Shown: piece by piece, positions 9,480 to 37,938 of the stretch
How positions within the stretch are numbered: position 1 is the first letter of the stretch
How the letters are laid out: every line of letters starts with the position of its first letter
Virus record (IMG/VR): IMGVR_UViG_3300011980_000002
Location: 159,033 to 223,032 of that record
Source: a virus
DNA: 64,000 bases
Reading direction: 5' to 3' (one strand)
Translations under genes and position numbers: made by a program
The notes under the pieces: model-generated
Told to the model about the DNA's origin: nothing
Database searches by the model: none
Seen by the model: only the letters and a program-made list of their open reading frames with translations

Positions 9480-9516
9480 AAATAAATCTTAATTAATTTT
9501 AGGATTTATTTTTTTT
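9480..9516. terminator. Terminator between convergent genes
   Basis: AAATAAATC / GATTTATTT stem flanked by A-rich and T-rich runs. Confidence 0.5.
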
Positions 9517-19080: not shown

Positions 19081-21141
19081 ATGGAACCTATCATAAAGCA
19101 TATTTCCACAGAAGAAGAAATGAAGAAGCATATAAAACCATTATATGTAATTCATGATTATATGGATAATGATGAATCATACATAGATTTTCAAGAGTCT
19201 ATGTATGATTTGATTAAAGGATGTTTCGAATATCATAAACTGAGGACTTATCCGATTAATTTTAAATTCTATGAAAGTGATACAAAAGTTCATACATTAG
19301 AACTTAGATTTTTCGTAGTAAATTTATTTTATTGGTATCCTCTTATTAATTTAAACAAGTTTAAAGATGTTATAGATGAGAGTTTTATCATTACTAAATC
19401 TACCGATGTAATTCATATTAATAAGTGGATTGATAATTTAATGATAACCTTATCTGATTATCATGTTAAACCTGTTGTAATAAACAGATACATTTCTACA
19501 GCCTTATATAATATAAGAAGAGTCAATGCAGACTTTTCTGAAATTATGGGACTAAACTTTGATTTAGTAACTATATTTGAAATGTATTGTAATAATAAGA
19601 CGATACATGATTTGATGGAACTAAATATAGATGAGGAAATGCAACCTAATGAAATAGAGGAAATCTTATTAGACGCAGAAGAGAAATTAATTAATGAATT
19701 AATGTCTATTAAGAATAATCCTATCGGGACAATATTAAGAAGTGGAACTGGTATTAAACATAAGCAAGCTGTAGAGTTCTTTATATCTAAAGGACTAATG
19801 CCTACAATAGATGGAACTACTATACCATTACCAATAAAGAATTCTACTTTAATTGGTGGTATTAGTAAAGCTTCTGATTTATATATAGATGGTACAGGTT
19901 CACGAAAGTCATTAATAATGTCTCATACGGTAATGGGTAATGCCGGTCATTTTGGTAAGATGTTAGCCGAATTAGCCAGAACTTTATCATTATCTAAAAG
20001 AGTTGCAGATTGTGGTACTAAGCATAGAGTTAAATACTTTGTAGAAAGTAAGAAATTCTTAAAGAAATTAGATAATAGATATTTCTCATTAACTAAGAAC
20101 GGGGAATTGGAATTACTTAAGGCTAATAAGATGGAATATCTTATTAATAAAGAAATTTATGTAAGATCCCCAGCTACTTGTTGTTTAGAGAATGAAGTAT
20201 GTCCAAGATGTATGGGCAAAATAGCTACATTTAATTTCGATATTGCGGCAGGATTTTGTGCTTTCTTAATTAAAGAAGTTACTAAAGTATTAGAGCAGAA
20301 TATATTATCTACTAAGCATCTACTTACTACAACTTCAGAGAAGATTGAGTTTAATGAAACTTTCCATAAGTATTTCACATTATCATCTAATGAGGTTAAT
20401 ATTAATCTTAATGATAATGAAGAAATTGAATCTATTGAAGATTGGGTAATGATATTAAATAAAGATACTATAGAGAAAGAAGATGATATGGATATGGAAG
20501 AAGGTCTTAATACATATATATCTGATGGTAAATTTACTGTTAAGAATATAAAGACTAATCAGACATTTGAAATATCAGAACTTGGAAAGAAGAATCTTTA
20601 TTTATCAGATGAATTAATAGAATTATTTAAATCTAGTAGTACAATTAAATTCTCAGACTTGGATGAAAGTGCTCCACTATTTATTATTCAGATTTCTAAT
20701 AATGAATTAACAAGACCATTGTATGAAATTATGGATATAATCAATACTAAGAAGAAAACTGACTTTGAAAGAACTATAGATAATATGGCACAAAGATTCG
20801 TTCAGTTATTAATAGAGTCTAAGATTGCTGCTCCTGCGGTATCTGCTGAAGTTATTATTAACAGATTACTTAGACTTCCTGATGATATGTTTAATAGACC
20901 AGATTTCAATTCTGTCAAAATGCCAGATTATACTATTTCAACAAGTATGGCTTCTTTAGAGAGGAATAACTCAGCTAGTGTTGGTTTAGCTTTTCAGTTC
21001 TTAAATAGGCAGTTAACTAACTTAGAGTCTTTCACTAAAAAGAGTTCACCATCATACCTCGACCCGTTATTCAGAGAAGAGGTCTCAACTAAAAAGGTGA
21101 AGAAATTTATGAAATATATCAATAAAAAAGATAGGAAATAA
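19081..21141 (+). CDS. Multisubunit RNA polymerase beta-prime-like subunit, set A, C-terminal half
   Basis: VRSPATCCLENEVCPRCMG is followed by AAGFCAFLIKEVTKVLEQNILSTKHLLTT (compare G.AVG.IAAQSIGEPGTQLTMRTFH). There is no DFDGD loop, so this is only the C-terminal part. Confidence 0.8.
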   Translation: MEPIIKHISTEEEMKKHIKPLYVIHDYMDNDESYIDFQESMYDLIKGCFEYHKLRTYPINFKFYESDTKVHTLELRFFVVNLFYWYPLINLNKFKDVIDESFIITKSTDVIHINKWIDNLMITLSDYHVKPVVINRYISTALYNIRRVNADFSEIMGLNFDLVTIFEMYCNNKTIHDLMELNIDEEMQPNEIEEILLDAEEKLINELMSIKNNPIGTILRSGTGIKHKQAVEFFISKGLMPTIDGTTIPLPIKNSTLIGGISKASDLYIDGTGSRKSLIMSHTVMGNAGHFGKMLAELARTLSLSKRVADCGTKHRVKYFVESKKFLKKLDNRYFSLTKNGELELLKANKMEYLINKEIYVRSPATCCLENEVCPRCMGKIATFNFDIAAGFCAFLIKEVTKVLEQNILSTKHLLTTTSEKIEFNETFHKYFTLSSNEVNINLNDNEEIESIEDWVMILNKDTIEKEDDMDMEEGLNTYISDGKFTVKNIKTNQTFEISELGKKNLYLSDELIELFKSSSTIKFSDLDESAPLFIIQISNNELTRPLYEIMDIINTKKKTDFERTIDNMAQRFVQLLIESKIAAPAVSAEVIINRLLRLPDDMFNRPDFNSVKMPDYTISTSMASLERNNSASVGLAFQFLNRQLTNLESFTKKSSPSYLDPLFREEVSTKKVKKFMKYINKKDRK

Positions 21142-22297: not shown

Positions 22298-22339
22298 AAT
22301 AATAGATACTAGATTAATTTCTAGTATCTATTATTTTTT
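22298..22339 (+). terminator. Cassette terminator
   Basis: AATAATAGATACTAG / CTAGTATCTATTATT followed by a T-run. Confidence 0.75.
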
Positions 22340-22414: not shown

Positions 22415-22603
22415 ATGTCAGATATAGTAACTGTTATGAGAAAAAGAGAATTAGCAAAGGCTAGTGAGATTTTAAGAAGTTTGGATGAAAGAATTAGTAA
22501 GGACCTCGATGGTGGACATACACCTGAAAGGTATCATGAATGGCTCGATATTGTGGATTTGAAATATATCATAGAGAGTTTAGTAAAACTCGAAGAGTCA
22601 TAA
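22415..22603 (+). CDS. Small early-cassette protein, unknown function
   Basis: 62-aa ORF behind early motif 22361 and the fixed SD. Its own terminator lies at 22609. Confidence 0.55.
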   Translation: MSDIVTVMRKRELAKASEILRSLDERISKDLDGGHTPERYHEWLDIVDLKYIIESLVKLEES

Positions 22604-22608
22604 AAAAT

Positions 22609-22650
22609 AAAACCCTTATAGATATAATTTCTATAAGGGTTTTATTTTTT
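22609..22650. terminator. Bidirectional terminator
   Basis: AAAACCCTTATAG / CTATAAGGGTTTT with flanking A- and T-runs, between convergent genes. Confidence 0.75.
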
Positions 22651-23516
22651 TATTTAACTATAGAAAATATTGATAGGTCTGGGGTTTTTGTATTATATTC
22701 TTTTTTCCATTTACCATTACAATCTACAAAATAATATAAGTTATTATCTATTACAGACTGTATGTAAGCATTAGTAGCCATCTTTCCATCTTCTTTAAGA
22801 TAATATGTACCACTTGATAATTCTAACCATTGGGAAGATAACATATGGCAATTCTTATTATCCATATAATACCAATCATCACCACTCTTAAACCATCCGG
22901 TTATTGTGCATCCATCAGCATCAAATACATACCATAATCCATTTATTTTTTTCCAATTATCTTTAACGATATTTCCATCTTCATCATAGTATATCCACTT
23001 ATCACCAACTTTAGACCATTCTTGATTATGGTTTTCTATACTTGGTGGAGTTTGTAATATTTTATCATATTTTCTCAATTCATATTGGTTTATTATATCT
23101 AAATTCAGTTTAATATATTTACTATCTGTAGCATATCCAGCTTCTTTTAATATTTGTAAATATTCTTCTGGTGTAAATACATTTTTTAGTTTCCTATATC
23201 TTGGTAAGGATATAAAATCAAAATATCCTTTAATACCATCTTCTAAAGTTCTATAAACTCTAAAATTATCTTTAATCGTAGTTTTAACTCCTGGTGTATA
23301 CTCTTCTTTAGTCTTAAGATTAACAGAAGCTCCTGTCCATTTAGAACCAGTCTTCATACCGAAGTAATTATGATAAGAAGCAGCTAATTTGGTATTACCC
23401 CACCCACTCTCTAATATAGCTTGAGAAATAATAACACTTGCTACTTTAATACCATATTTCGGAGCATATATAATTACATATTTAGATATATTATCAATAA
23501 ATTCTTGTTTCGTCAT
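22650..23516 (-). CDS. Endolysin: GH73 N-acetylglucosaminidase domain + CW_binding_1-type cell-wall-binding repeats
   Basis: ISQAILESGWGNTKLAASYHNYFGMK matches the glucosaminidase motif AQAxLESGWG...NLFGIK. The C-terminal half has aromatic repeats (WIYYDEDGN, GLWYVFDADG, DDWYYMDNKN, GTYYLKEDG, NLYYFVDCNG). Confidence 0.85.
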   Translation of the reverse strand: MTKQEFIDNISKYVIIYAPKYGIKVASVIISQAILESGWGNTKLAASYHNYFGMKTGSKWTGASVNLKTKEEYTPGVKTTIKDNFRVYRTLEDGIKGYFDFISLPRYRKLKNVFTPEEYLQILKEAGYATDSKYIKLNLDIINQYELRKYDKILQTPPSIENHNQEWSKVGDKWIYYDEDGNIVKDNWKKINGLWYVFDADGCTITGWFKSGDDWYYMDNKNCHMLSSQWLELSSGTYYLKEDGKMATNAYIQSVIDNNLYYFVDCNGKWKKEYNTKTPDLSIFSIVK

Positions 23517-23662: not shown

Positions 23663-26600
23663 ATGGCGAGAAATCGAAATGGATCTATATTAAAATCTTT
23701 TTCAAATAATATTCGTAGTAAGTCTAAACAGATATCTACACCATGGTTAAAAAATGCCATGAAAGGTATCGGAGCTGCTGCGAAGGATACGCTAAAAGAT
23801 ATTGCTCCTGTTTTATATGATGCATCTACTACTGCTGGTAAAGCTAGTAAAGATGCAATTACTTTATTGCGTGGTAATACAAATGCTACTGCAATGAATA
23901 AGTTAATATCTAAAAATATATATGTAAGAACTGCCAGAGACATGATCAAATGGACAATGGAAGATTTACGTTCAGGTAAATTATTTAATGAAGATCGTGT
24001 TACCGACATATTAATGGGTGGTGATGGAAGTGGTTCTGCAATGAGTGACCCAGACTCAATGTTTTCAGACTGGGACATGGACGATGATGGAAGTTCCGGT
24101 AATGTCATTATTAATAATAATTCTGATAGTAGTAATGCCGGATTTGCATTAGCAGTTAATGAAGGATTAAGAGAATCTACAATGGCACAACTCAAAGGTC
24201 AACAAGCAATGGTTGATACTATGGTTGCTATTAGTGGAAGTCAAATTCTTCAAAATCAAGAGATAGGTAATCAGATTATTACCCAATTAACTAATGTAAA
24301 TAATAATCTTATTGCTATAAATGAATTTAACAAAACTACTATGACAAGTTTTGTTACAACTGTTACCGCTTATATGGAAAAAATGGGTAAGAAAGCAGAT
24401 GAATATGATTCATCTGAAGAGAAATTTGACCCAGCATCTATATTTAGTGGTGGATTTAATTTAGGTAACTATGGTAAGCATATTAAAAAGAATGTAAAAA
24501 CAGCATTTGAGAATTCTGATATTGGATTTGTTCATAGTTTAGTTAGTGACCCAGAGACGCTTAAACTAATTACAGCTAATCCATTAGGTGCATTAACAAC
24601 TTTAACAATGAAAGCAATGACTCCTAAGTTAATGAAAAAGACTATGAGTCAGATAGATGAAGCTGTTGCGGGATTTATGCCATCGTTATTAATGAGAATA
24701 GGTGAGTTATCTGAATCCAGAGAACTTGGATGGAAAGGTAAACTTAAACGATGGATAGGTGATGTATTTGGATTACAAAATGTATCTAATACTGATAGAA
24801 ATAAATTAAATCCTACTAAAAATATCACTAAAGATGCAGCAGTATTTGATGGTATTACAAGACATACTATTGTAGAAATAATTCCTAAATACTTAAGTGA
24901 ATCTGTATCATATCTTAAAGAATTGGTTCATGTTAATGGTGGTAATGTTGGTAGGGCTATGGGAAGTCGAGAAATCTTCGACTTTAATAAAGGTAGATTT
25001 AGTACCGTAGCTAAATCAAGAAGAGACTTATATGAACAGATAAGAAGTTCAGGTACTGATGTAATTGCTAGTGGTAAATTAGGTAGACATATCGAATCTA
25101 ACAGTGGTGCTGCTTATACTGACAAAGATGGTAAATACGATAATAAAGCATTAGAGCAATGGAATGATATGGTAACCAAATTCTACGATCAATTAGAGCG
25201 TATGAATAAAATGATAGACATGACTAATTTCTCCGAAGATGGAGATATTATGAAAGCTATCAAGGGAACCGGATATGGTGGTAAGATGGCTGAGTTCTTA
25301 AAACAACTCATGATAGAAGCATCTAAAGATACATCTATTACAACTACCGCTAACTCAGATTTCCAAAGAGCAAGATACTCAAGAAAAGCTACCATTAAAG
25401 ATATGAATGAAAATCCGGATTATTATAATCTTAGTGCTGTAGCAAATCTTAGTGAAGATATTGATCAAACAATGGACAGAGTATTTGGTGGTGTATTTGG
25501 TAATCCAAATGAAATCAAACAATCCGGTTCAATGGTTAAAACTTTATCTGATATAAGATATATTCTTAATAGAGGAATTAATGTAAGAATTACTGGGCAT
25601 GGACCATATCAAACATTTACCGGTCAAGAAACTAATATTTCTAGTATCACTAGAGAAAACGCTCCTCAAAGAAATACATCTCCACAATCATCTCAAAATG
25701 ATGAAGACAAAGCTGGTCCAACTAAATTGGAAGAAATGTCTACTGAAGAGATGATAAATCATGTTGCTGAAAATGGTACTTTGTATAACGATGATACTAA
25801 GACTACTAAGAAAGTTAAAGATATAATGCACGCATTACTATTTGGAAATGCTTCAATGGCATTTAGTGGTGTTGCAGATATATTTATTAGTAAGATTAAT
25901 GGTGTTATCGATGTAATAGATAAAGACTTTTTCCAACCAATGAAAGCAAGTTTATTCGGTACTAAAGATGAACAAGGTTATTCTCGTAATGGTGTATTCT
26001 CTGGAATGCAGCAACAGTTTACAGATTACTATAGAAGTATTGTAAGACAGTTTAATGGTAAAGGATATACTGACTCTAAAGGTCAAAAACATGAGGATAT
26101 TACTGACCCAAGTAAATCTGTTGTAGGACAAATTAAAGCTACAGTATCGGATATAAAAGAAACTGTAGTAGATTATGTTTTAGGTCCTAAAGATAGCGAG
26201 ACTGGTAAAAGAGAAAAAGGTATGGGTCTTGTTAATATCTTTAGAGATGGAATTGAAGGATGGGGAAAAGCTATCTTTGGAGAAACTGAAGATGGTAAAC
26301 CTAAATTCGATGCAGAGAAATTTAAAAAAGAAGTAAGTGAAAGAATGCCTAGTGCTGTTACTGGAGCTTTAGGTGGTGCTGTTCTTGGTAGTATGACAAG
26401 TGGAAGTTTACTTGGTTGGTTAGTTGGTGGTCCTGTTACTGGTTCTATATTAGGATTAGCTACTGGATTTGCTTCTAAGAGTAAAAAGTTCCAACAATTC
26501 CTATTTGGTGAAAAAGACGAAGAAGGTAATATTGTCAGAGACAGTGGTATCATCAATAAGAAAATGCAAGACTGGTTCAAGAAGAATAAAGTTCCAATCA

Positions 26601-29600
26601 TAGGTGGAGCAGCAGTTGGAGCTGCGAAATCTGTATTACTTGGTAATGGATTTTTAACAGGAATGGTTGGAAACATCATAGGCGGACCATTAGCTGGAGC
26701 ATTACTTGGTTCTATTGGTGGAATAGCTTTAAGATCTGAAGCTTTTAAAACTTTCTTATTTGGTGATATGGATAAAGTGGATGCACACGGAAATCGTGGA
26801 TGGCATAAGGGAATAATCCCAATGTTTAAAGGTATCTTTAAGAAAAATGATGGTACGACAGATGAAGGTAAATCAATGCTTGGAATGGCTGGTATTGGTG
26901 CTGGAGTTGGTTATTTATCTGCGGCTGTTATTGGTAAGATGGGATTTTTAGGTGCCATGGCAACCCCATTTGGTCCGATTGGTGGTGCTATTGCAGGTTT
27001 AGCATTATCTATTAAAGCATCTCAAGGTGGATTTAGAGAATGGTTATTTGGTAAGGAAAATGAAGATGGAACAAAATCTGCTGGTATATTAGGAAGATTT
27101 GCTAATATGTTAAATGCAGAATTACTTACACCATTTAAACAAGGTGCAATGGAATTTGCATTAGATACTAGAGACTTCTTAATAGATAAGATTATGGCTC
27201 CTATTGAATTTGCTATAGAACCATTTGCAAATGCAATGAAAGACTTAGGTGATAAAATTAAGAAAACCTTTGAGAAAGTTGGTAATTTTATCGTTGATTC
27301 TATAAAAGAACACATGATAAAACCTATAACTGAAACTATTGGTAAGTACATATTATCACCTATAAGAAAAACATTCGGTATATTATTTAAATTAACTACA
27401 GGAATAATTAAATCTATCGTAGCTGCTCCATTTTCTGCTATAGGAATGATGGCTAATTACGGTGAATATAAAGAGCGTAAGCGTAGTAGAAGAATGGCTA
27501 TTGATGATGTCTATGAAGAACAAGGTTTACTTGGTGGATTAATTCATCAAGGTAAGGTTATGCTTAACTATGGTGGAGCTAGAGAAGCTGCTAACTATAA
27601 ACATCATAGATATTCTGACTGGGGTGAGCGTAAGAAACGTTATGAAGCTGATAGATTAAGAAGAGCTGAAGAAAGAAAAACCCAAAAAGAAGAGGGTAGA
27701 AGAAATGTCCGTAATAGGATATTAATGGCTCGTTATTCTGGTGGAGAATTATTAGAAGATAGTGAAGAAAATCGTGCTAGATTAGAGGAGATGCTAAAAA
27801 ATAGTCCTCGTAAGCGTAAACTATTTGGATTATTAGCTGATAAACCTAATTTCAAAGGTGCTGCTACTGAAGAAAATAGATCTACCAAATTAGATAATAG
27901 CAATATTATCAAAAATGCAGATAGTCCAGGTTCTCCAGTAGATGAAAGACAGTTGGGTACTCAGTTAAGTATCTTAGATTTACTTAGAAAGATATTTGGT
28001 CTAAATAAGGATAATAAGAAACTTAAAGGGTCAAGAAAATTTACTGGTGGAAGAAGAACTACAACAGAAGATGGTGAAAATCCAGAGTCTCAAACAGACG
28101 AAGAGGTTATTAACGATGAAGATGAAAATAGACCAGCTCATAAATCTTTATTCCAAAGATTAAGAGAATATAATTATGGTAATTTAAATCCATTCAAGAG
28201 ATTCTTCGGAGATAAAGCAGATAAAGGTGACAGACCTCGTATAAGATATTATGCCGAAGGTGGAGACCATAAAGAAGATGGAATGGCTGTAGTAGGAGAA
28301 GAAGGACCGGAGTTAGTAAGATTAGCTAGAGGTTCTAGGATATTTGGTGGTAGAAAACCATTGCCTGTTACAGTTGTTGATATGAATAGTAAAGCTGTTA
28401 GTAAGTTTAAAGTAGCCACTGCTCCTAAAATATCTGAAGAAGCTGGAGTTACAGTAACCAGAAGAAGTCTCATTGATAAACAGAGAGAAGAGGATAAATC
28501 AGATTACCAGAAACAAAAAGATGCTGGTAAACTTGAGAATATTGAGAAGAGAAAACTCGAAGAAGAAAAGCTTAATATGGAACGAGAAAATCATGACAAT
28601 ATTAAAGCTACAAGAGAAACTCAAGAGAAATTCTCATTAGGATGGGGTAAGATATTCTCTAAAAAAGGAATAATTACTGCTGGATTTATGATACTATTAC
28701 CACTATTAATCAAATGGTTAATGGGAAAAGGTGGTGATGGTGGTGGAATCAGTGGTCCAGATATCGGTAAACAAGTTTTAAACGATTTATCATTCGGACA
28801 AGACCATTTACAAGATGGAAAAAGTACTCCTGAAATGATAAAAGAAACCATGGATGATACTAAGCATCTTTTTAAAGGTGATATATGGAAATGGGTAACA
28901 TCTGATGGTGGATGGGATCATGAAAGCGGTGCTAAACTAAATGCATTAGGGCATATTCCAGTTGCTCTTGGTGGATTATTAAGACCTTTCCTAAAAACTG
29001 GTACTAAACAAAATAAAGCTGTGATGAATTTCATCAATGGTTTTAAGAATAGTAAATTCTTAGGATTTGGTAAAAGACAACTTGGAAGAGCTGGTAGTGC
29101 TATAGGTTCAGGTGCAGGTCGTTTTGGTACAAGAGCATTAGAATACATGGATGAAGCTGGAGCTGGTATTAATCTTGCAGTTAATATGAGAGCTGCTAAT
29201 CCAGGTTCAAGAATGAAAGATGTACTTAAAGATATGAAACTCATTAAACAAGGTGAGGGTTCATATAGAGAAGCATTAGAAACCATGAAAACATTCCAGA
29301 ATTCAGGATACGGAAGTATGGATGAAGCTCTTGGAATGATGGGATATGGTGGAGAAGGATATAAAGTACTTGGAAAAGGTAGTGGTGTCGGAGATGACAT
29401 AGTTAGAAATACAAGAAGAGTAATAGGTCCAAATGCTGCTAAAACCGGTGGTCTCCGTGAAACAATGATGCGTCAGAAAGAAATGGCTAGATTAGCTAAA
29501 AACGAAACTAGTGTTGGTAATAAATACTTGGCTAGTTTAGCTGATGATGGCGATGAACTTGCTAAATTATTAGGTGATACATCTGGAGCAACTAACTCTG

Positions 29601-32600
29601 AAATACTTAGAACCTTTAAGGGTGATAAAAACTTTGCAAGAACTATTGGACAAAAACAGTTAGCAAATGCTGGAGAAGAAACCGCAAATTCTTTCTGGAG
29701 AAAGAGCGTAGGTTTAGGAGACGATTTAGGTGAAGCTGGTGCTAAACTTGGACAAACATTCGGAGATGATGGTTTAGAGCTAGCCGCTAAAGCTGGTTCA
29801 TTCTCAGATGATGCTGCAAGAGCTGCCGGAAAAGCTGGTAAAGGATTTACTGATGATGCTTTAAGAGTTGCATCTAAATCTATAGGAAGTTTGATGGATG
29901 AATTCTGGAAAGTTGCAGCTAAAGTTGGTGGAAAGATTGGTAGTAAAATGCCATCTTTTGTAGATGACATACTTAGAGCAATTGGAAAGAAATTCGCATA
30001 CTTTACAGCTAAACTTGCTGCAATTATGGGTAAGACTGCTGCATTAGCAGCTACAGTTGTAGGTTATTTAGCAGACCAAACATTATGGATTACTGTTGGT
30101 GCAGTCGATGGTTTAACAGGTGCTGCTAGACTATTCCAGATAGATAGACCTGACTGGATAATGGTTGCATTATCTGGTGCTATAGGTGCATTTAAAGGAA
30201 GTACAGTTGGTTCTATACTTGACTTAATAAATGAAATAGTTCATAGTGTATTAGGGCTAGATATGTTCCATGAACTTGCTTCTTGGGTTTATGGATTTTT
30301 AGCAGGTAATGAGAAATACCAGAATTTACTAAGACAAAAAGAAGAGTTTAAAAATCAATTCTTAGAGGATGATGAGGCTTCTTTAAGAAAGCAATATGAA
30401 GCATATCTTGGAATTACTGGTACTAATGAAAATCAAGTATCATTTGAGAAATTCATGGAGCATGTTAATAAAGGTGATATCAAAGTTAAGACTGAATCTT
30501 TTGCAGATTACAATGAAAGAAAACATGCTTCAGTTTTAGGTCATTTAGGAAGAGGTACTGTTAATGCAATCAATGCTACGGGAAACTTCTTAGTAGGAAC
30601 AGATAGCCAATCATGGAGAGACCAAATGGGTAATACATGGGTGGTTAAAGATGATCGAAAAGGAATAGCTCAAGTTTACAGTAAAGATGGACAGATGCTC
30701 GGTGAGATGAGTGCTGAGAATATTGATAAAGAAAACTGGAAGTATAACGGTAAACAAGAAGGTAGAGGTGCTGTCGATGTTATTGGAGATGGTATTACTA
30801 CTGCTACGAACGCTATAGGAGATGCGTACAACACTGTAAGAGCTAATCCATTTGGACGAGCTTCTGTTGCTGCACTAACTATGGGCACAAGTGAACTCTG
30901 GGATTTTGCAAGTAACCCTGCTCAATATATGTCAGGTATGGGAAAAACCATGGGACAAGGAGCTGGTGCATTATGGGGCGGTATGAAAGCTGCTGGTAAA
31001 GGTATTTCTGATTTTGCAGGAGCGGCATGGAATGGTATAGGTGCCGCTGGTGATAAATTAGGTGAATTCTTTGCTCCTATAGGAAAGGGATTTAATAATG
31101 TACTTAAAAACTTATTCGCACCATTGATTGGAGAAGTAAAGCTATTTAGTAGTGATTTCTTAATGAGAAATGCTAAAGTTCCTGAAGCATATGCTAAAGC
31201 TGGTGACATTAGTGGTTTATGGTCAAGCTTAGATGCAGGTATGGAAGGTGGCTACAATCAAGATAGTGATGATGCATCTCTAATAAGAGGTGTTGGTGGA
31301 GCTGTTAGTAGAATTGCAGGATTTTTCTCAAGAATATATTACACATTTCCAGCAGCGTTTAGTGCTCTAGGAAATTGGTGGGATGATACTGTAACTAAAC
31401 CATTTAGAGAATTTTCAAGTAACGCTCAACCTAGAATAGATAGTATAAAAAGTCAGATAGACGCTGCTGCTGCTGCCGGTGATATTGCTAGTATAGCTAG
31501 TGGCGTTGGTGTTGGTCGTGGACCAACATTAGGTGGTTCAGGTATGCTTGAAGATTTGTATGTGAATGTTATGACATTTTTACCATATATTGGCGGTACA
31601 TTTAAAGCAGGATTTAATGCTGTTGGAAAATGGTGGAACGATAATGTTGCACAACCATTTATAAATTTTGGATTAGAATTACAACCACATTATGTTTCTA
31701 TCGCTGAGAAAATAACTGAAGCAGCTTCTAATGGTGATATAGGTGCAGTTTGGAGTGCTGAAGATACAGCCGAAGGTGAACTTAGTTCATTTCAATCAAC
31801 TGTACTCGGTGCAATGTCTATTGGACCAAAAATTGGTGGTACATTTGTAGCAGGATTTAATGCTGTTGGAAAATGGTGGAATAACGCTATAGTTAAACCA
31901 TTCAAAGAATTTGCTGATAATGCTCAACCTACTATAGATGAAGTTAATGATAAAATGTGGGCTGCCGCTGCTGCCGGTGATACAGAGGCTGTTGGCGAAG
32001 CTCAAAGAATTAATACTGGTAGCCCTTTAATGAATTTGTATGTCAGTGCAATGACAATGTTTCCATGGATGGGTGCAAGTATGAAAGCCGGAGTTGTTAA
32101 GATTGGTAATATATTCTCAGAGTTCTTTAACAATGAAGGTGAGTCTATTAAGAATATGGGTAACAGTATGGCTTCATACTGGAAGACCTTGAATGGGAAA
32201 TTTGACGGGGAAGGATATCAGAAAATATCTGTCGGTGAGTTATTTACATTTGGAAAGAATTCATCTATTTCAAATACTATAGTAGGAGCCTTAACCGGTA
32301 TATTTGGAACTGTTTGGTATGTTATTAGAGCTGCTGTTGAAGAAGTTGGTGGTTTTTTCAAAAATGCTTGGGATGTGATAACTGCACCATTTAAATGGAT
32401 TGGTGATAAAGTAAAAGAACTATCAAAAGATACAGAGACTACTAAGCAATCATGGAATGATATAGTTAATAACCAAAATGTATCATCATCAACTACAACA
32501 TCCAATTATAGTAAGCGTGAATCAGCATATCTTAATAGTAATATGTGGGCTAATATGACAGATGAACAAATACGAGCAAAGGTTAAAGAACTAAATAAGA

Positions 32601-35600
32601 CTATAGGATATGATTCATATAACGCAGATGAAATAATTGCTAGCCGAAATAAAAAGAAAGAGAATAACTACTCATCTTATAGTAATACAACTATCGGTGT
32701 AGATTCTAGTGGAAATATTACTACTAAACAATCTAACGGTGGTAAAGGTGGTGGAAAGGGTGGTAAAGATATTAGTTTACCATACTTCTCACAAAAAGAC
32801 CCAAGATGGGGTAATAAGAAATACGGTAATGAAAAAATGTCAGACGCTGGTTGTGGACCTAATGTTATGGCTTCTGTAGCATCTGGTTTAGGTGGTGCAA
32901 GAGGTGGTTCAGTATCACCGATGGAAATGGCAGATTACGCTAAGGAAAAAGGATATAGAGATAGTACTGGTACTAACTGGAACTTCGTAGATGGTGCTAT
33001 TAAGGATTATGGTTTAAGTGGAACCAAACAATGGAATCCTAATGCAAGATTTATCCATGACGAAGTTAAGAAAGGTAATCCCGTTGTACTTAGTGGATAT
33101 TCACAAGGACCTTTTGACCCATATACAAGAGAAGGACATTATGTTGTTGCTACTGGAGTAGATAATAAAGGTAGAGTTACAATTAATGACCCTAGAGGTA
33201 GAGAATACTCTGGTAAGTTTGACATAAATAATGTCGCAAACTCCACAGCAGTTGGTTGGGGAGTAAGACCTGGGGGTAAAGGTGGTGGTTACGGTAGAGG
33301 TAACTTTAAAAGAGGTAAAGACGGTAAGTTTGACTACAAAGTTACACAAACCGGTACAACCACAGGTTTACAATATAAATCAGTAAAAGAATCTGCTATT
33401 GGTATACATAAAGACACATGGTTAGATAATAAAACTAATAAAGAATTAAAGTATTCACCAAATAGTACATACCGTGCACTGAATGGTAGATTACCAAGAA
33501 GTATTGTAGGTAAAGGTGAAACATTCGATATCGACCAAAGTGTAATTGAGCAGGAGAAAAATCAAGCTCTTAAAAATAAACTACACTTGTCTGAAAGAGC
33601 AATGTATAGAAAAGCGAATGAAGCATATAAGAATGAAGCTGAAAGAAAACTTGGTGCACGAGAAGGTAGATTATTTGGTGGACCACTATATCAATTATAT
33701 GCGTTAGATGAGGCAAAATCTCAATATGCACTAAATCCCAAATTCCAAAGTGCTGCTAAGTTTAAACCTATAGACACGTCTGACCCAGGTTGGATGTTTA
33801 AGAAAGGTAGTGGTGCTGTATTAGGTGAGATGATAAACTCCTCTATGGGATTAAGTAGTAATAGTACATTATGGTCAAATGACAGTAATTCTTCAAGTAG
33901 TAGCGACTCATCAGGTGGTTCATACGATAGCTCCGGTGGAGACTGGGGTGGTGGAGATTACTCTGGTGGAAGTTACGATTCAGGCGGTTCATATGATTCC
34001 GGTGGTGTTTCAGATAGTGGTGGTGGAACTCCTACTATACAAGAAATATCAGTTACAAAAGGTGGTACTTGGTCATCTGATATAGAGACATATGCAAGAC
34101 AGGTTCTTTGTTCATCCATGTTACACTTACAAGGTAAATTAAGATATTCTCAAGGTGGAGATAGAAGTCAGGTTATGGATGGTTTCACCAAAGGACATGG
34201 AGTCGGAGACTGTTCATCTACAATATCTATACTTCATAAATATATATGTGGATTAAGTATTGGTGATTGGTCAGGTGCCATAAGATCTTCTAATGTAGGT
34301 TTAGTTGTTGATAGTAATACTGGTGGTGTTCCTGATGAATCTAAACTACTCCCTGGTGATGTTATATGTTATAACAACCATGTAGAGATGTATTTAGGTA
34401 ATGATCAATGTATCGGTCACGGTGCTGGTATGGGACCTAAACTTAAACAAATGAAGAGTTATACAGAATCAAGAAATGCTAGAGGTTCTGGAAAGAAATA
34501 TATATGTACTAAGAGATTCGTACATGATGGAAATGTTACACAAGTTAATGTACCACCTGGAGTTACTCCAGATGCTAAATATGCTGTACCTGGAACAAGT
34601 TCAGGTGGAAGTAATGGTAAATCTGGTGGAGTGGGTTCATCAGGTGGTGGATTATTTGGTAATATAATGCAGCAATTCTCTACATTCATTGGAGATATTG
34701 GAAATAATGCAATGGAATTTTTCCTCACTGGAAAATGGGGAGATAAGTATACATTTGGTGGCGGACCCGCAGACCAAAACTCTTCAGATAGTGCAAATTC
34801 ACCATCAATATCTGAAGGTAGTGGAACTCCAGATAATTATACTGGAGATGTCGACTATATAGGTAGATATATAAAACCATTTGAGTCAGGTAAGGAAGGT
34901 TCATCCAAGATATCATCTGGTAAGGGAGACTCAATTGGCGGTCCGTCATTTGGTACATTCCAATTCCCTTCATATTGGGAAACTACTGCTGGTAGTAAAG
35001 CTGGAAAGCTTAGAAAATTCTGGGAACCATATGCTTCTAAATACCCAGGAGTTCAACCTGGTAATAATGATGCATTCAAAAAAGCATGGAAAGAAGCATC
35101 TGTTAAAGAACAACCAGGCTTCTTAAAAAGAGAGGTTGAAGTAAATGGACAGATGACACTTGCCCCTAATCTAAATAAGATGAGGAGTGTTTTTGGTGAT
35201 ATTGATGTTGATAGAGCTTTACAGGAAGCTATATATTCATCAATCAATATATATGGTAGTGCTAGTAGAACTCTTGATTCATTTAATCAAGCAGGTGTAC
35301 CAAATTCATCCGTTTATAAACAAAATCCAAAAGAGGCTCTCAAGAAGTTCTACCAAGCTAAATATGATAGAATTCCTATAAACTTTAAATCATCTCCAGG
35401 TTCATGGAAAGGTATAAGAAATAGATTTAGTAAAGAGGAACCTGCTATAGTAATTCCTCTAGTTGGGCAAAAACCTTTACCTGCATGGGATAAAACTGTA
35501 CCAACTGGTGGTGGAAAAGGTGGTTCGGATGACCCATTCGTAGAATTAGGTAGACTCTCAGATGGAGCTGATATAACCAAACAAGATTTCAAAGTCAATA

Positions 35601-35989
35601 CTGGTGGTAAATACGCTAGAAAGATTGGTGGTGGAAGAGGTTATGAAAGAAGATATGCTTCTGTAAGAAGATCTATGAATAGTAAAGGTTATTTCACTAA
35701 ACCAGTTTCTGGTGGTGGAAGAGGTGGTTCTAATGATGCTATGTTAGAACTATTAGCTATCATGATAAATAGATTAACTGACATTGCTAATTCATCTGCA
35801 AGTTCAGATGCTAAGTTAACAATGCTTAAAGATTTACATGGTAATACTAATGTAGTTAGTACCAATATAAATGGTGCGGGTAATAATGGGAAAACTAATG
35901 TAATAGTTACTAAAGAAAATAGTCCACAATTATTACCAATACAATCAAGAGCATCTAAAACTGCTGAAAGAATTGCCAGAGGTTATTAA
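23663..35989 (+). CDS. Giant virion/tail protein (4108 aa): tape-measure-like core fused to three peptidoglycan-hydrolase-type domains
   Basis: Single uninterrupted ORF with SD AAAGGGGGA and an AACA-N6-TA motif at 23601. Contains Gly-zipper hydrophobic segments, charged coiled-coil stretches and the tape-measure-type motif VVGEEGPELV. It also has a C39-like domain, an NlpC/P60-like domain and a lysozyme-like domain (listed separately). Confidence 0.85.
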   Translation: MARNRNGSILKSFSNNIRSKSKQISTPWLKNAMKGIGAAAKDTLKDIAPVLYDASTTAGKASKDAITLLRGNTNATAMNKLISKNIYVRTARDMIKWTMEDLRSGKLFNEDRVTDILMGGDGSGSAMSDPDSMFSDWDMDDDGSSGNVIINNNSDSSNAGFALAVNEGLRESTMAQLKGQQAMVDTMVAISGSQILQNQEIGNQIITQLTNVNNNLIAINEFNKTTMTSFVTTVTAYMEKMGKKADEYDSSEEKFDPASIFSGGFNLGNYGKHIKKNVKTAFENSDIGFVHSLVSDPETLKLITANPLGALTTLTMKAMTPKLMKKTMSQIDEAVAGFMPSLLMRIGELSESRELGWKGKLKRWIGDVFGLQNVSNTDRNKLNPTKNITKDAAVFDGITRHTIVEIIPKYLSESVSYLKELVHVNGGNVGRAMGSREIFDFNKGRFSTVAKSRRDLYEQIRSSGTDVIASGKLGRHIESNSGAAYTDKDGKYDNKALEQWNDMVTKFYDQLERMNKMIDMTNFSEDGDIMKAIKGTGYGGKMAEFLKQLMIEASKDTSITTTANSDFQRARYSRKATIKDMNENPDYYNLSAVANLSEDIDQTMDRVFGGVFGNPNEIKQSGSMVKTLSDIRYILNRGINVRITGHGPYQTFTGQETNISSITRENAPQRNTSPQSSQNDEDKAGPTKLEEMSTEEMINHVAENGTLYNDDTKTTKKVKDIMHALLFGNASMAFSGVADIFISKINGVIDVIDKDFFQPMKASLFGTKDEQGYSRNGVFSGMQQQFTDYYRSIVRQFNGKGYTDSKGQKHEDITDPSKSVVGQIKATVSDIKETVVDYVLGPKDSETGKREKGMGLVNIFRDGIEGWGKAIFGETEDGKPKFDAEKFKKEVSERMPSAVTGALGGAVLGSMTSGSLLGWLVGGPVTGSILGLATGFASKSKKFQQFLFGEKDEEGNIVRDSGIINKKMQDWFKKNKVPIIGGAAVGAAKSVLLGNGFLTGMVGNIIGGPLAGALLGSIGGIALRSEAFKTFLFGDMDKVDAHGNRGWHKGIIPMFKGIFKKNDGTTDEGKSMLGMAGIGAGVGYLSAAVIGKMGFLGAMATPFGPIGGAIAGLALSIKASQGGFREWLFGKENEDGTKSAGILGRFANMLNAELLTPFKQGAMEFALDTRDFLIDKIMAPIEFAIEPFANAMKDLGDKIKKTFEKVGNFIVDSIKEHMIKPITETIGKYILSPIRKTFGILFKLTTGIIKSIVAAPFSAIGMMANYGEYKERKRSRRMAIDDVYEEQGLLGGLIHQGKVMLNYGGAREAANYKHHRYSDWGERKKRYEADRLRRAEERKTQKEEGRRNVRNRILMARYSGGELLEDSEENRARLEEMLKNSPRKRKLFGLLADKPNFKGAATEENRSTKLDNSNIIKNADSPGSPVDERQLGTQLSILDLLRKIFGLNKDNKKLKGSRKFTGGRRTTTEDGENPESQTDEEVINDEDENRPAHKSLFQRLREYNYGNLNPFKRFFGDKADKGDRPRIRYYAEGGDHKEDGMAVVGEEGPELVRLARGSRIFGGRKPLPVTVVDMNSKAVSKFKVATAPKISEEAGVTVTRRSLIDKQREEDKSDYQKQKDAGKLENIEKRKLEEEKLNMERENHDNIKATRETQEKFSLGWGKIFSKKGIITAGFMILLPLLIKWLMGKGGDGGGISGPDIGKQVLNDLSFGQDHLQDGKSTPEMIKETMDDTKHLFKGDIWKWVTSDGGWDHESGAKLNALGHIPVALGGLLRPFLKTGTKQNKAVMNFINGFKNSKFLGFGKRQLGRAGSAIGSGAGRFGTRALEYMDEAGAGINLAVNMRAANPGSRMKDVLKDMKLIKQGEGSYREALETMKTFQNSGYGSMDEALGMMGYGGEGYKVLGKGSGVGDDIVRNTRRVIGPNAAKTGGLRETMMRQKEMARLAKNETSVGNKYLASLADDGDELAKLLGDTSGATNSEILRTFKGDKNFARTIGQKQLANAGEETANSFWRKSVGLGDDLGEAGAKLGQTFGDDGLELAAKAGSFSDDAARAAGKAGKGFTDDALRVASKSIGSLMDEFWKVAAKVGGKIGSKMPSFVDDILRAIGKKFAYFTAKLAAIMGKTAALAATVVGYLADQTLWITVGAVDGLTGAARLFQIDRPDWIMVALSGAIGAFKGSTVGSILDLINEIVHSVLGLDMFHELASWVYGFLAGNEKYQNLLRQKEEFKNQFLEDDEASLRKQYEAYLGITGTNENQVSFEKFMEHVNKGDIKVKTESFADYNERKHASVLGHLGRGTVNAINATGNFLVGTDSQSWRDQMGNTWVVKDDRKGIAQVYSKDGQMLGEMSAENIDKENWKYNGKQEGRGAVDVIGDGITTATNAIGDAYNTVRANPFGRASVAALTMGTSELWDFASNPAQYMSGMGKTMGQGAGALWGGMKAAGKGISDFAGAAWNGIGAAGDKLGEFFAPIGKGFNNVLKNLFAPLIGEVKLFSSDFLMRNAKVPEAYAKAGDISGLWSSLDAGMEGGYNQDSDDASLIRGVGGAVSRIAGFFSRIYYTFPAAFSALGNWWDDTVTKPFREFSSNAQPRIDSIKSQIDAAAAAGDIASIASGVGVGRGPTLGGSGMLEDLYVNVMTFLPYIGGTFKAGFNAVGKWWNDNVAQPFINFGLELQPHYVSIAEKITEAASNGDIGAVWSAEDTAEGELSSFQSTVLGAMSIGPKIGGTFVAGFNAVGKWWNNAIVKPFKEFADNAQPTIDEVNDKMWAAAAAGDTEAVGEAQRINTGSPLMNLYVSAMTMFPWMGASMKAGVVKIGNIFSEFFNNEGESIKNMGNSMASYWKTLNGKFDGEGYQKISVGELFTFGKNSSISNTIVGALTGIFGTVWYVIRAAVEEVGGFFKNAWDVITAPFKWIGDKVKELSKDTETTKQSWNDIVNNQNVSSSTTTSNYSKRESAYLNSNMWANMTDEQIRAKVKELNKTIGYDSYNADEIIASRNKKKENNYSSYSNTTIGVDSSGNITTKQSNGGKGGGKGGKDISLPYFSQKDPRWGNKKYGNEKMSDAGCGPNVMASVASGLGGARGGSVSPMEMADYAKEKGYRDSTGTNWNFVDGAIKDYGLSGTKQWNPNARFIHDEVKKGNPVVLSGYSQGPFDPYTREGHYVVATGVDNKGRVTINDPRGREYSGKFDINNVANSTAVGWGVRPGGKGGGYGRGNFKRGKDGKFDYKVTQTGTTTGLQYKSVKESAIGIHKDTWLDNKTNKELKYSPNSTYRALNGRLPRSIVGKGETFDIDQSVIEQEKNQALKNKLHLSERAMYRKANEAYKNEAERKLGAREGRLFGGPLYQLYALDEAKSQYALNPKFQSAAKFKPIDTSDPGWMFKKGSGAVLGEMINSSMGLSSNSTLWSNDSNSSSSSDSSGGSYDSSGGDWGGGDYSGGSYDSGGSYDSGGVSDSGGGTPTIQEISVTKGGTWSSDIETYARQVLCSSMLHLQGKLRYSQGGDRSQVMDGFTKGHGVGDCSSTISILHKYICGLSIGDWSGAIRSSNVGLVVDSNTGGVPDESKLLPGDVICYNNHVEMYLGNDQCIGHGAGMGPKLKQMKSYTESRNARGSGKKYICTKRFVHDGNVTQVNVPPGVTPDAKYAVPGTSSGGSNGKSGGVGSSGGGLFGNIMQQFSTFIGDIGNNAMEFFLTGKWGDKYTFGGGPADQNSSDSANSPSISEGSGTPDNYTGDVDYIGRYIKPFESGKEGSSKISSGKGDSIGGPSFGTFQFPSYWETTAGSKAGKLRKFWEPYASKYPGVQPGNNDAFKKAWKEASVKEQPGFLKREVEVNGQMTLAPNLNKMRSVFGDIDVDRALQEAIYSSINIYGSASRTLDSFNQAGVPNSSVYKQNPKEALKKFYQAKYDRIPINFKSSPGSWKGIRNRFSKEEPAIVIPLVGQKPLPAWDKTVPTGGGKGGSDDPFVELGRLSDGADITKQDFKVNTGGKYARKIGGGRGYERRYASVRRSMNSKGYFTKPVSGGGRGGSNDAMLELLAIMINRLTDIANSSASSDAKLTMLKDLHGNTNVVSTNINGAGNNGKTNVIVTKENSPQLLPIQSRASKTAERIARGY
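28295..28312 (+). other. GEEGPE motif inside giant protein
   Basis: GEEGPELV resembles the G-E-x-G-P-E motif I recall as recurrent in phage tail tape-measure proteins. Confidence 0.5.
31346..32150 (+). repeat. In-frame tandem repeats (81-85 aa period) inside the giant gene
   Basis: FPAAFSALGNWWDDTVTKPFREFSSNAQPRIDSI..AAAAAGDI, GGTFKAGFNAVGKWWNDNVAQPFINFGLELQPHYVSI..AASNGDI and GGTFVAGFNAVGKWWNNAIVKPFKEFADNAQPTIDEV..AAAAGDT. The TGGTGG codons lie at 31376, 31631 and 31874. There is a 31-nt identical block GCAGGATTTAATGCTGTTGGAAAATGGTGGA in copies 2 and 3, plus a degenerate 4th copy. Confidence 0.8.
32775..33200 (+). other. Peptidase C39-like (papain-fold) domain of giant protein
   Basis: LPYFSQKDPRWGNKKYG...MSDAGCGPNVMASVAS ... 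GHYVVATGVDNKGRVTINDPRG shows a Q...CGP...H...D pattern. Confidence 0.6.
34100..34440 (+). other. NlpC/P60-type cysteine peptidase domain of giant protein
   Basis: GVGDCSSTISILHKY ... LLPGDVICYNNHVEMYLGNDQCIGHG matches the G.DCSG ... PGD...... HV.iY.G pattern. Confidence 0.7.
34850..35400 (+). other. Lysozyme / lytic-transglycosylase-like domain of giant protein
   Basis: YIKPFESGKEGSSKISSGKGDSIGGPSFGTFQF has a Glu-Ser ... G-x-x-Q-F arrangement reminiscent of SLT / phage tail lysozyme domains. This is a weaker call. Confidence 0.4.
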
Positions 35990-36007: not shown

Positions 36008-36044
36008 ATAGTGTACTAGAATTAATTCTAGTACACTATTTTTT
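36008..36044 (+). terminator. Intrinsic terminator after the giant gene
   Basis: Perfect 32-nt palindrome ATAGTGTACTAGAATTAATTCTAGTACACTAT followed by T5. Confidence 0.8.
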
Positions 36045-36075: not shown

Positions 36076-37938
36076 ATGGCATATAGTGGAAAAGTCACAA
36101 CTAGCTTAAATGTTAGAAATGGTGCTGGTACATCTAATGGTATTGTAAGAACTCTATCATATGGAAGTACCGTTACAATAACTGAAACACAAAATGTTGG
36201 TGGAGCACTGTGGGGAAAAATAGATGATGGATGGATATGCTTATCATCTGCTGGTGGAACTAAGTATGTACAATATAGTGAAATATCTGGTGAATCTGCA
36301 TCAGGTAATCCATTATTTAAGAAATTAGATACAGCTAATGAAACTAAATTACCATATGCAAAAGAAGCATATATTAGTACATTTAAGACTTTACTGGAAG
36401 GAGATACTAATAGAGGTTATGCTTTTAAAAAAAGTATGAGACTTTATGGATTACCTTACCAGTTTAGACCAGAGGTTGATGTTAGAGTTGATAAGGTGAG
36501 TAAAATAATCGGAAGAAAATTTATTAATAATATAATGAGTAATGCTCCTGTTGTTAGTATAATTCCAGGAATTCCTAAATATCTTCCTAATGCTAAAAGT
36601 AGAAATGATGCGATTGCTAAATCTCAAGCATTTATGAGTGCCGCAACAGGTGCATTTGAAGATTTACAAAATGTATTAACGGCACAAGAACGAGAAGGTG
36701 AACCTGTACAAAGGTATTATGACTTCCAACAAGATTATACTAATTATATGCAGTATGTAAATATTATGTGTAGGACTGCCGCAACATTCTTAGAGTTAAC
36801 TGATAAACTAGATGGTGATAGTTTACAAAGTTATGATTGGCGTAATTACAGATGGGGTTCCCAAAGTAATAAAGGTGCTGCATCTTGGGCTGTTAAACAA
36901 GGTGGAAAAATGGTTAAAGGAGTTATCAATGCAATAAGTGAAGGTGGAGAAGCTTTCGTTAATGCATTAACTGGTAACAAAGCTACAGGTAACTCGCAGC
37001 ATAAGTATAAACATACTACTACTACGAATACACAAGAAGCGGACAGTTTAGTAGACTCATTATTATCAAGAAGTGGATTTATACAATTCTATTGTGATCC
37101 TGATATGGGTGCTACTGAGAGTGCTAGTAATAGTACACAAGACTCAATGTTAAAAGGTGCATTCGATAATGCATCTCAAGGTATGAAAGAATTAGCATTT
37201 CTGATGAACTCTGGTGGTTTGAGTAGTGTGGATAACCTTAATGGACTCCAAGAAGGGGTATCAAAAGGTATTGATAAGATAGGCTCCTTTTTTGGTGGGG
37301 GTAATGGTATAAGTGAGATGTTAAAAAGAATAGCCGATGTAACCTCTAACGTAGTTAAAGGTGAAAATTTAATTATACCACAAATATACAGTGGTAGCTC
37401 ATATGATAGGCGTTATTCACTTACTGTACATCTTAAGTCAATTTACGGTAGTAAATTAGCGTACTATTTGGATGTTTTAGTACCATTATTCCATTTATTA
37501 GCATTAGCACTACCGAAACAAACTTCTGCTAATACATACGGTGCACCATTCTTAGTTAAAGTATTCTGTGATGGAATATTCACCACTAACTTAGGAATAG
37601 TAAGTTCAATATCAGTAAATAAGAATGTTGATCCTGAGGCATGGACAGTAGATGGATTTCCATCTGAAATAGATGTGTCATTAGAAATAACTGATTTATA
37701 TTCAGACTTAACAATGTCACCACAAACTAATATAGAGATGTTTTTAGCAAATTCATCACTAATAGATTATATCGGTACTACTTGTGGATTAAACTTCTTG
37801 GAGCCACAGATAGCTAATAAGATGAAGAATTTTATTACTACAATTAAAAATGCTTTTGGAGATATTCCAGAAAATATCGTGTCTGTATTAAATGATAAAG
37901 TTGATAACCTAGTAGCTCCATGGGTTAGTATATCGTAA
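36076..37938 (+). CDS. Virion-associated protein with N-terminal SH3b domain
   Basis: VTTSLNVRNGAGTSNGIVRTLSYGSTVTITETQNVGGALWGKIDDGWICLS is a typical bacterial SH3_3 pattern. The remaining roughly 550 aa are unrecognised. Lies directly downstream of the tape-measure-like gene. Confidence 0.6.
   Translation: MAYSGKVTTSLNVRNGAGTSNGIVRTLSYGSTVTITETQNVGGALWGKIDDGWICLSSAGGTKYVQYSEISGESASGNPLFKKLDTANETKLPYAKEAYISTFKTLLEGDTNRGYAFKKSMRLYGLPYQFRPEVDVRVDKVSKIIGRKFINNIMSNAPVVSIIPGIPKYLPNAKSRNDAIAKSQAFMSAATGAFEDLQNVLTAQEREGEPVQRYYDFQQDYTNYMQYVNIMCRTAATFLELTDKLDGDSLQSYDWRNYRWGSQSNKGAASWAVKQGGKMVKGVINAISEGGEAFVNALTGNKATGNSQHKYKHTTTTNTQEADSLVDSLLSRSGFIQFYCDPDMGATESASNSTQDSMLKGAFDNASQGMKELAFLMNSGGLSSVDNLNGLQEGVSKGIDKIGSFFGGGNGISEMLKRIADVTSNVVKGENLIIPQIYSGSSYDRRYSLTVHLKSIYGSKLAYYLDVLVPLFHLLALALPKQTSANTYGAPFLVKVFCDGIFTTNLGIVSSISVNKNVDPEAWTVDGFPSEIDVSLEITDLYSDLTMSPQTNIEMFLANSSLIDYIGTTCGLNFLEPQIANKMKNFITTIKNAFGDIPENIVSVLNDKVDNLVAPWVSIS

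Follow-up and report, generated by a model that had tools for sequence, protein, structure and literature searches.

The 12.3-kb gene examined here probably encodes a tail tape-measure protein fused to a cassette of tail lysins. It lies on the plus strand at 23663..35989 of a 64,000-nucleotide stretch of viral DNA (the window; positions 159,033 to 223,032 of IMG/VR virus record IMGVR_UViG_3300011980_000002), and its product of 4108 amino acids (aa; 445 kDa, pI 9.0) is tape-measure-like with a C-terminal lysin cassette. The source is an uncultivated AR9/PBS1-like jumbo phage of 223 kb, most likely with a contractile tail. Membership in the tape-measure functional class is supported but not proven. 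The protein is most likely one member of a large undescribed metagenomic family and no one-off oddity. A preliminary description of the window, made from the sequence alone, had proposed a virion protein combining tape-measure features with three different wall-hydrolase folds, directed at a thick or spore-type Gram-positive wall; overall, that interpretation is partly supported.

A single long gene and its relatives

Translation of 23663..35989 (+) gives 4108 codons with zero internal stops, and the uninterrupted open reading frame (ORF) of the preliminary description is therefore borne out. At about 35% GC, we estimate that roughly one in 14 random codons (7%) is a stop, so that 4108 open codons exclude a chance ORF (estimate, about 1e-130). 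The giant ORF has one ribosome-binding site, with a Shine-Dalgarno-like AAAGGGGGA upstream, and one terminator, a terminator-like 14-bp hairpin with a T-run right after the stop codon (36008..36039, +). Its GC content is 33 to 38%, compared with 25 to 28% in the flanks, which fits its Gly/Ala-rich composition. The identical protein was called on a metagenome contig in ENA (ERZ27279295:k119_143363; 223,074 bp), and two IMG/VR contigs of about 210 kb each carry unbroken versions: one of 4262 aa (L005:5414-18202; 54 to 74% identity) and a more distant one of 3475 aa (L004:1943-12370; 23 to 42% identity in five blocks). Positions 23663..35989 are a single genuine gene, kept uninterrupted on three independent contigs of 210 to 223 kb. 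Megablast against phage and plasmid collections gave no match.

Among cultured phages, tblastn with the N-terminal 1500 aa matched only AR9, PBS1 and related Bacillus phages; the same search with aa 1501-3000 gave no match. In AR9 (gp204) the matched gene carries the annotation "tail tape measure protein," and in PBS1 (gp95) it is labeled "lysis domain protein." In BLASTP, aa 28-671 (23744..25675, +), the region that defines the family, are colinear with aa 9-613 of AR9 gp204 (22% identity; E 5e-15). The colinear N terminus, a VgrG3-like domain and the genes downstream together indicate that the window protein corresponds to AR9 gp204, in a version expanded about two-fold.

The wider family was revealed by an exhaustive HMMER search with aa 1-1200 against protein cluster representatives (50% identity clusters), in which 866 representatives matched at E<=1e-3 and 364 of these at E<=1e-30. 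Lengths among the best 150 representatives reach 5477 aa, with a median of 3434 aa, and most fall between 2900 and 5500 aa. A word-index protein homology search had given no hits with aa 1-1300 or the NlpC region, and two fragments only with the C terminus, seemingly because the index was swamped by low-complexity words. The plan shared by the 866 clusters consists of the N terminus, a tape-measure motif, a lysin cassette and a conserved C terminus. When the full-length family profile was compared with the PDB, no solved tape measure was found and the only match was the lysozyme of phi29 gp13.

The preliminary description had itself named a frameshift-corrected fusion of several genes, or another sequencing or assembly artefact, as what would overturn it. 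A precedent for separate genes exists in the Staphylococcus jumbo phages DC4 and MarsHill, which have two adjacent large tape-measure-like/tail-lysozyme genes, of ~1960 to 1990 aa (PMC10638138; bioRxiv 10.1101/2020.12.14.422802). Against a chimera or a frameshift-hidden fusion in the window stand the unbroken ORFs of 4108, 4262 and 3475 aa on the three contigs, the length of most of the best 150 family representatives, the single ribosome-binding site and terminator, and AR9 gp204, in which a single chain of 1925 aa already holds both the N-terminal region and a glycosidase. Such an artefact is essentially refuted.

Tape-measure features and the C-terminal lysin cassette

The features listed in the preliminary description (a Gly-zipper, a charged stretch, the GEEGPELV motif, a hydrophobic segment, Ala/Gly repeats and a Ser/Gly/Asp linker) were all found where it had placed them. 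Three hydrophobic Gly-zipper repeat units of ~90 aa each (aa 887-1145; 26321..27097, +) were located by hydropathy scan and internal repeat comparison (E 1e-8 to 1e-12). This block is the best conserved across the family, with near-invariant Gly and Pro columns, and its units are candidate membrane-inserting segments. A highly charged Arg/Lys/Glu stretch follows at aa ~1290-1520 (27530..28222, +), with 27% K+R and 17% D+E in aa 1301-1400. The tape-measure-type motif region (aa 1523-1592; 28229..28438, +) contains GEEGPELV at aa 1545-1552 (nucleotides 28295-28318). A 60-aa query with this motif matched 319 phage records (best E 4e-6), and the annotated ones are nearly all tape-measure proteins. 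The matches to the tape measures of many phages, together with the annotation of AR9 gp204, uphold the tape-measure features proposed at the outset.

Beyond the motif lies a strongly hydrophobic helix at aa 1664-1687 (28652..28723, +; IFSKKGIITAGFMILLPLLIKWLM; hydropathy peak, 1.97; IITAGFMILLPLLIKWLMG at aa 1670-1688), which is kept in L005, in L004 and in the family consensus. A conserved middle block with a hydrophobic hairpin (GAARLFQ...) spans aa 2032-2292 (29756..30538, +); it matches L004 at E 6e-18 and no known family. The hairpin of this block reads …GAVDGLTGAARLFQ…, and a FADYN motif lies downstream of it. Ala/Gly-rich stretches were found by composition and repeat analysis and include four tandem repeats of ~85 aa (aa 2505-2845; 31175..32197, +; self-comparison E 1e-8 to 1e-17). 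The alignment to L005 is shifted in register over these repeats, a lineage-specific length expansion. The hydrophobic segments are clear by hydropathy; helix prediction covers aa 1-1200 only, for which AlphaFold2 (AF2; 28-sequence alignment) gave mostly helices at low confidence (predicted local distance difference test score [pLDDT], 47), too uncertain for a fold search.

All three hydrolase domains of the cassette hold up, with Pfam or profile support and intact catalytic residues, and their activity is predicted. The first, described initially as a C39-like papain fold, is a Peptidase_C39_2 cysteine peptidase (PF13529; aa 3039-3177; 32777..33193, +), with a Pfam E value of 7.5e-13 (49.7 bits; cut-off, 24). 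Throughout the family, the columns of its putative triad (Cys3064, His3159 and Asp3176) show little or no variation. Its AF2 model exceeds a pLDDT of 90, and Foldseek placed it closest to the peptidase domains of ComA, PCAT1 and LahT (target-normalized template modeling [TM] scores, 0.67 to 0.77). True Peptidase_C39 (PF03412) had no hit in the Pfam scan of the window protein.

After a low-complexity Ser/Gly/Asp linker (33893..34027, +) comes an NlpC/P60 cysteine endopeptidase (PF00877; aa 3467-3628; 34061..34546, +; putative catalytic residues, Cys3517, His3573 and His3586). At 19.0 bits it falls under the Pfam gathering cut-off of 23, and it was confirmed by a family profile and the predicted fold. 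In the L005 orthologue, which shares 73% identity with the window protein here, the domain passes at 24.5 bits, and L004, a distant relative, has a CHAP domain at the same position. The family alignment shows no variation in the motifs DCSS, HVEMY and GHG. A PDB search with the single sequence gave only Gly-linker noise; the family profile was required, and with 12 sequences it matched Clostridioides difficile Acd24020 and CwlO at E 3e-10 with the catalytic Cys and His aligned. The AF2 model again exceeds a pLDDT of 90, and Foldseek matched MepS, Acd24020 and CwlO at TM scores of 0.66 to 0.80.

The last domain had been called lysozyme/SLT-like, of which the lysozyme type stood. It is a lysozyme/chitosanase-type glycosidase of the T6SS_VgrG3-like_C family (PF21277; aa 3734-3926; 34862..35440, +; Pfam E 3.7e-20; 73.1 bits; cut-off, 27). 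Its FESG (Glu3741) and GDxxGG (Asp3756) motifs align with Vibrio cholerae VgrG3 (4NOO) and are kept in L005, L004 and AR9. The AF2 model of this domain is of low confidence, and the assignment rests on sequence. The SLT, or lytic transglycosylase, label was rejected, since the Pfam scan (E<=0.1) turned up no match to an SLT model. The modeling of segments, which the preliminary description had recommended, thus gave confident folds for both peptidases and low-confidence models for aa 1-1200 and the VgrG3-like domain. The protein ends in a conserved segment of ~95 aa (35699..35986, +; …LLAIMINRLTDIANS…AERIARGY), which is probably the end that anchors it at the tail tip. The cysteines of the protein are unevenly distributed: there are 0 in aa 1-3020 (23663-32722), and all 7, both catalytic ones included, are in the C-terminal cassette (32723-35989).

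Domains were counted across the family with our own hidden Markov models, run on the best 150 representatives and four reference proteins (n=154). The near-universal catalytic domain is the C39-like one, present in 136 of the 154 in up to four copies, compared with CHAP in 30, NlpC/P60 in 23 and VgrG3C in only 7. The tape-measure motif was found in 77, the middle block in 114 and the C-terminal segment, as the C terminus, in 125 (including the fragments P0001 and P0002). In a Pfam scan of 15 members, C39_2 and Phage_lysozyme2 each occurred in 13, NlpC/P60, CHAP, M23 and Glucosaminidase were variable, and true Peptidase_C39 was hit in three relatives (E down to 1e-13). Phage_lysozyme2, the glycosidase of most family members, matches the phi29 tail lysin gp13 (E 8e-19). 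These counts indicate that multi-lysin cassettes are the rule in the lineage and that the window protein is an ordinary member retaining the AR9-type glycosidase. The initial view that three lytic modules on one protein are unusual is valid among cultured phages only and does not apply within a family of at least 866 clusters. The largest member seen, of 5477 aa, is encoded at L007 6001-22434 (ENA ERZ27291659:k119_320921). It has four C39-like domains arranged as two pairs, plus Phage_lysozyme2, and its tape-measure motif lies at aa ~3170-3260, compared with aa ~1545 in the window protein; its extra length therefore sits upstream of the motif.

Proposed function and alternative explanations

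By analogy with T5 Pb2, phiKZ gp181 (PMC5380687) and other tape measures, the first ~3000 residues, long and mostly helical, would lie inside the tail tube and help to set its length, and the tail tip would hold the lysin cassette and the conserved last ~95 residues. When the sheath contracts, the protein would exit the tube with its C terminus leading. The two cysteine peptidases would then cut the peptide stems or cross-links of peptidoglycan and the VgrG3-type muramidase would cut the glycan, their combined action opening a local hole in a thick Gram-positive wall. Finally, the Gly-zipper and hydrophobic helices may insert in the membrane and form a channel for the DNA and the virion RNA polymerase.

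Several observations weigh against a tape measure. No curated tape-measure model matches (Pfam at E<=0.1; NCBIfam at E<=1, with zero NCBIfam hits), and AF2 confidence is low (pLDDT, 47) over the N-terminal 1200 aa. The name "tape measure" is, for AR9 gp204, annotation only; for the window protein, we infer a location in the virion and in the lumen of the tail tube. The gene does not lie between tail-chaperone (frameshift) genes and tail-tip/baseplate genes. Its neighbors are an endolysin and RNA polymerase subunits upstream and an SH3 virion protein and RusA downstream, and the AR9 locus has the same nonmodular layout. As an extended helix (0.15 nm/residue), the ~3000 residues before the cassette would give a tail of ~450 nm, about twice what we take, as our own rough estimate, to be the tail of AR9. 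The ~1100 residues of folded domains per chain would also be hard to fit in a tail tube.

The same size and location would suit an internal head or ejection protein that does not set length, like T7 gp16 or the inner-body proteins of phiKZ, which would be packaged in the capsid, ejected via the tail and assembled into a channel through the envelope. The features expected of such a protein, wall-lytic and membrane-active, are present, the size looks excessive for a ruler, and the gene is outside a tail module, in the company of virion RNA polymerase subunit genes and RusA; in the related phage vB_BpuM-BpSp, homologues of the RNA polymerase subunits and RusA are virion components (PMC4870245). 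However, the motif region matches tape measures specifically, and contractile tails need a tape measure, which no other scanned ORF in the window resembles. The AR9 annotators picked the counterpart as the tape measure, and lysins placed before a conserved extreme C terminus fit the tape-measure layout, with the C terminus at the tip. We regard an ejection protein as quite unlikely and a tape-measure protein with a fused lysin cassette as the best explanation.

A further proposal is compatible with the tape-measure explanation and would refine rather than replace it: the chain may be a self-processing polyprotein, in which the C39-like peptidase cuts at GG[K/R]G motifs bordering the C-terminal modules, so that the mature virion or the infection site holds separate lysins and a shorter tape-measure core. 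C39 peptidases cut after Gly-Gly. The window protein has five GG[K/R]G motifs (aa 3026, 3204, 3950, 3990 and 4018; 32738..35728, +), restricted to domain borders within the last 1100 aa, and their positions are kept in L005, L004, P0001 and P0002, at the same borders even at ~40% identity. Across the family, the density of the motif is 2.28 per 1000 aa in the cassette and 0.118 upstream, an enrichment of ~19-fold at similar Gly content. The C39-like domain is near-universal with a conserved triad, its nearest solved folds are double-glycine leader peptidases, and the true Peptidase_C39 of three relatives points in the same direction. GG[K/R/F]G motifs are scarce in members lacking the domain (mean, 0.6, AR9 gp204 included, versus 3.1 to 4.3 in members with one or two copies), a comparison that shared ancestry confounds and in which the group lacking C39 numbers only 10 proteins, several of which may be truncated. 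A precedent is the Tal protein of TP901-1, which is cleaved by proteolysis at a Gly-rich motif that precedes its catalytic domain (PMC11409707).

On the other side, the residues flanking the motifs are unconserved and form no leader-like helix, the domain of the window protein itself falls below the Peptidase_C39 model, and Gly-rich basic stretches may be mere flexible linkers. In mycobacteriophage lysin A (PMC3314691), moreover, C39-like domains are ordinary peptidases of peptidoglycan. The motifs are thus candidate linkers or processing sites. The motif data, the specificity of C39 peptidases and the Tal precedent make self-processing a live hypothesis, albeit a tentative one that we think is more probably wrong than right. 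The broader statement that this protein and its whole family are self-dismantling tape-measure polyproteins, cut by the C39-like peptidase at GG[K/R]G, is more doubtful still. If true, free lysins and a trimmed ruler would be released during tail assembly or infection, and double-glycine processing would have a new use in a virus particle.

Tape measures with a single lytic domain are well known, and the novelty lies in the scale, not in the principle: an apparently undescribed, large family of proteins of 3000 to 5500 aa in uncultivated AR9-like jumbo phages, built of a conserved ruler/membrane core and an exchangeable cassette with two to five wall hydrolases. A recent review of jumbo phages leaves tape measures unmentioned. 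The length of the family members predicts very long tails or a nonruler use of the extra length, and the family may represent a natural library of virion-associated lysins against low-GC Gram-positive bacteria. The association of the C39-like peptidase with Gly-Gly border motifs, newly observed here, provides a testable link.

Neighboring genes and comparison with known systems

The phage is marked as AR9/phiKZ-like by genes for multisubunit RNA polymerase subunits at 9515-12319 (-), 19081-21141 (+) and 49277-50767 (+). There are at least three such genes, and in one product, of 934 aa, two PHROG "beta subunit" families are found on the same chain. The window also carries ThyX, virion structural proteins and RusA, and a conjugation-type (PrgK-like) multihydrolase was rejected for the giant protein, as the context is clearly that of a jumbo phage. 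The ThyX (Thy1) match of the 406-aa ORF at 16131-17351 (+) falls mainly in aa 243-391, and the first ~240 aa have no family match. No tRNAs or Rfam families were found in the window.

The preliminary description had reported a GH73 endolysin, an SH3b protein and a SleB-like hydrolase nearby, and all three are present. The GH73 (Glucosaminidase) endolysin, with choline-binding repeats, is encoded at 22650-23516 (-), and its choline binding hints at a host wall of clostridial or streptococcal type. Apart from the giant gene, the window has a GC content of only ~25 to 28%. The converging-gene gap upstream of it contains AT-rich hairpins with T-runs at 22603-22649 (20 pairs) and 22298-22335 (16 pairs), probably bidirectional terminators. 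The SH3_3 virion protein gene (36076-37938), directly downstream of the giant gene, is one continuous ORF; its AR9 counterpart, g205 (L001 16968-19303), is annotated as a join of three pieces with small ORFs between them. A second lysin-like protein combines a SleB/CwlJ-type Hydrolase_2 domain with SH3_3 (39385-40407, +). This SleB-family domain was all that lay behind the suggestion of a spore-type wall, which we reject; the related phage vB_BpuM-BpSp, which infects vegetative Bacillus pumilus, also encodes a spore cortex-lytic enzyme (PMC4870245).

Of the known systems, AR9 gp204 is the closest to the window protein. Both have a VgrG3-like_C domain (PF21277) near the C terminus and Gly-rich hydrophobic segments, both genes are followed by a g205-like virion protein gene and then RusA, and both phages encode a multisubunit RNA polymerase. 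The window protein is, however, 2.1 times longer than AR9 gp204, in which our models find no C39-like domain, NlpC/P60 domain, ~85-aa repeats, border motifs or family C terminus.

Two parallels come from phages of Gram-negative hosts. Pb2 of T5 is described in PMC5380687 (citing Boulanger 2008) as a tape measure with fusogenic and muralytic activities, and, as proposed for the window protein, it unites in one chain a ruler and hydrophobic, membrane-active segments with a wall hydrolase placed C-terminally, at the tail tip. It differs in its size (~1100 aa), noncontractile tail, Gram-negative host and single muralytic domain, and our searches found no sequence similarity between the two. The Pseudomonas jumbo phage phiKZ has gp181, a 246-kDa virion peptidoglycan hydrolase (PMC5380687). 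Like the window protein, it is structural, very large and equipped with a C-terminal glycosidase, and its place in this myophage is thought to be the tail or cell-puncturing device (PMC5380687). Its single lytic domain is of a different family, however, its host is Gram-negative, and our searches detected no homology.

Among phages with lysins at the tail tip, phi29 gp13 (lysozyme and M23) and TP901-1 Tal are likewise multidomain, and the Gly-rich junction of Tal is proteolytically processed (PMC11409707). Both are separate tail-tip proteins of 300 to 900 aa with no tape-measure fusion. The lysozyme-type domain of gp13 is found in most family members, whereas the window protein uses a VgrG3-type glycosidase instead. 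Finally, the C39 domains of the ATP-binding cassette exporters ComA, PCAT1 and LahT, the nearest solved folds, have the Cys/His/Asp triad in the same placement as the window domain, which sits, in contrast, in a phage structural protein without a transporter and whose substrate may be peptidoglycan.

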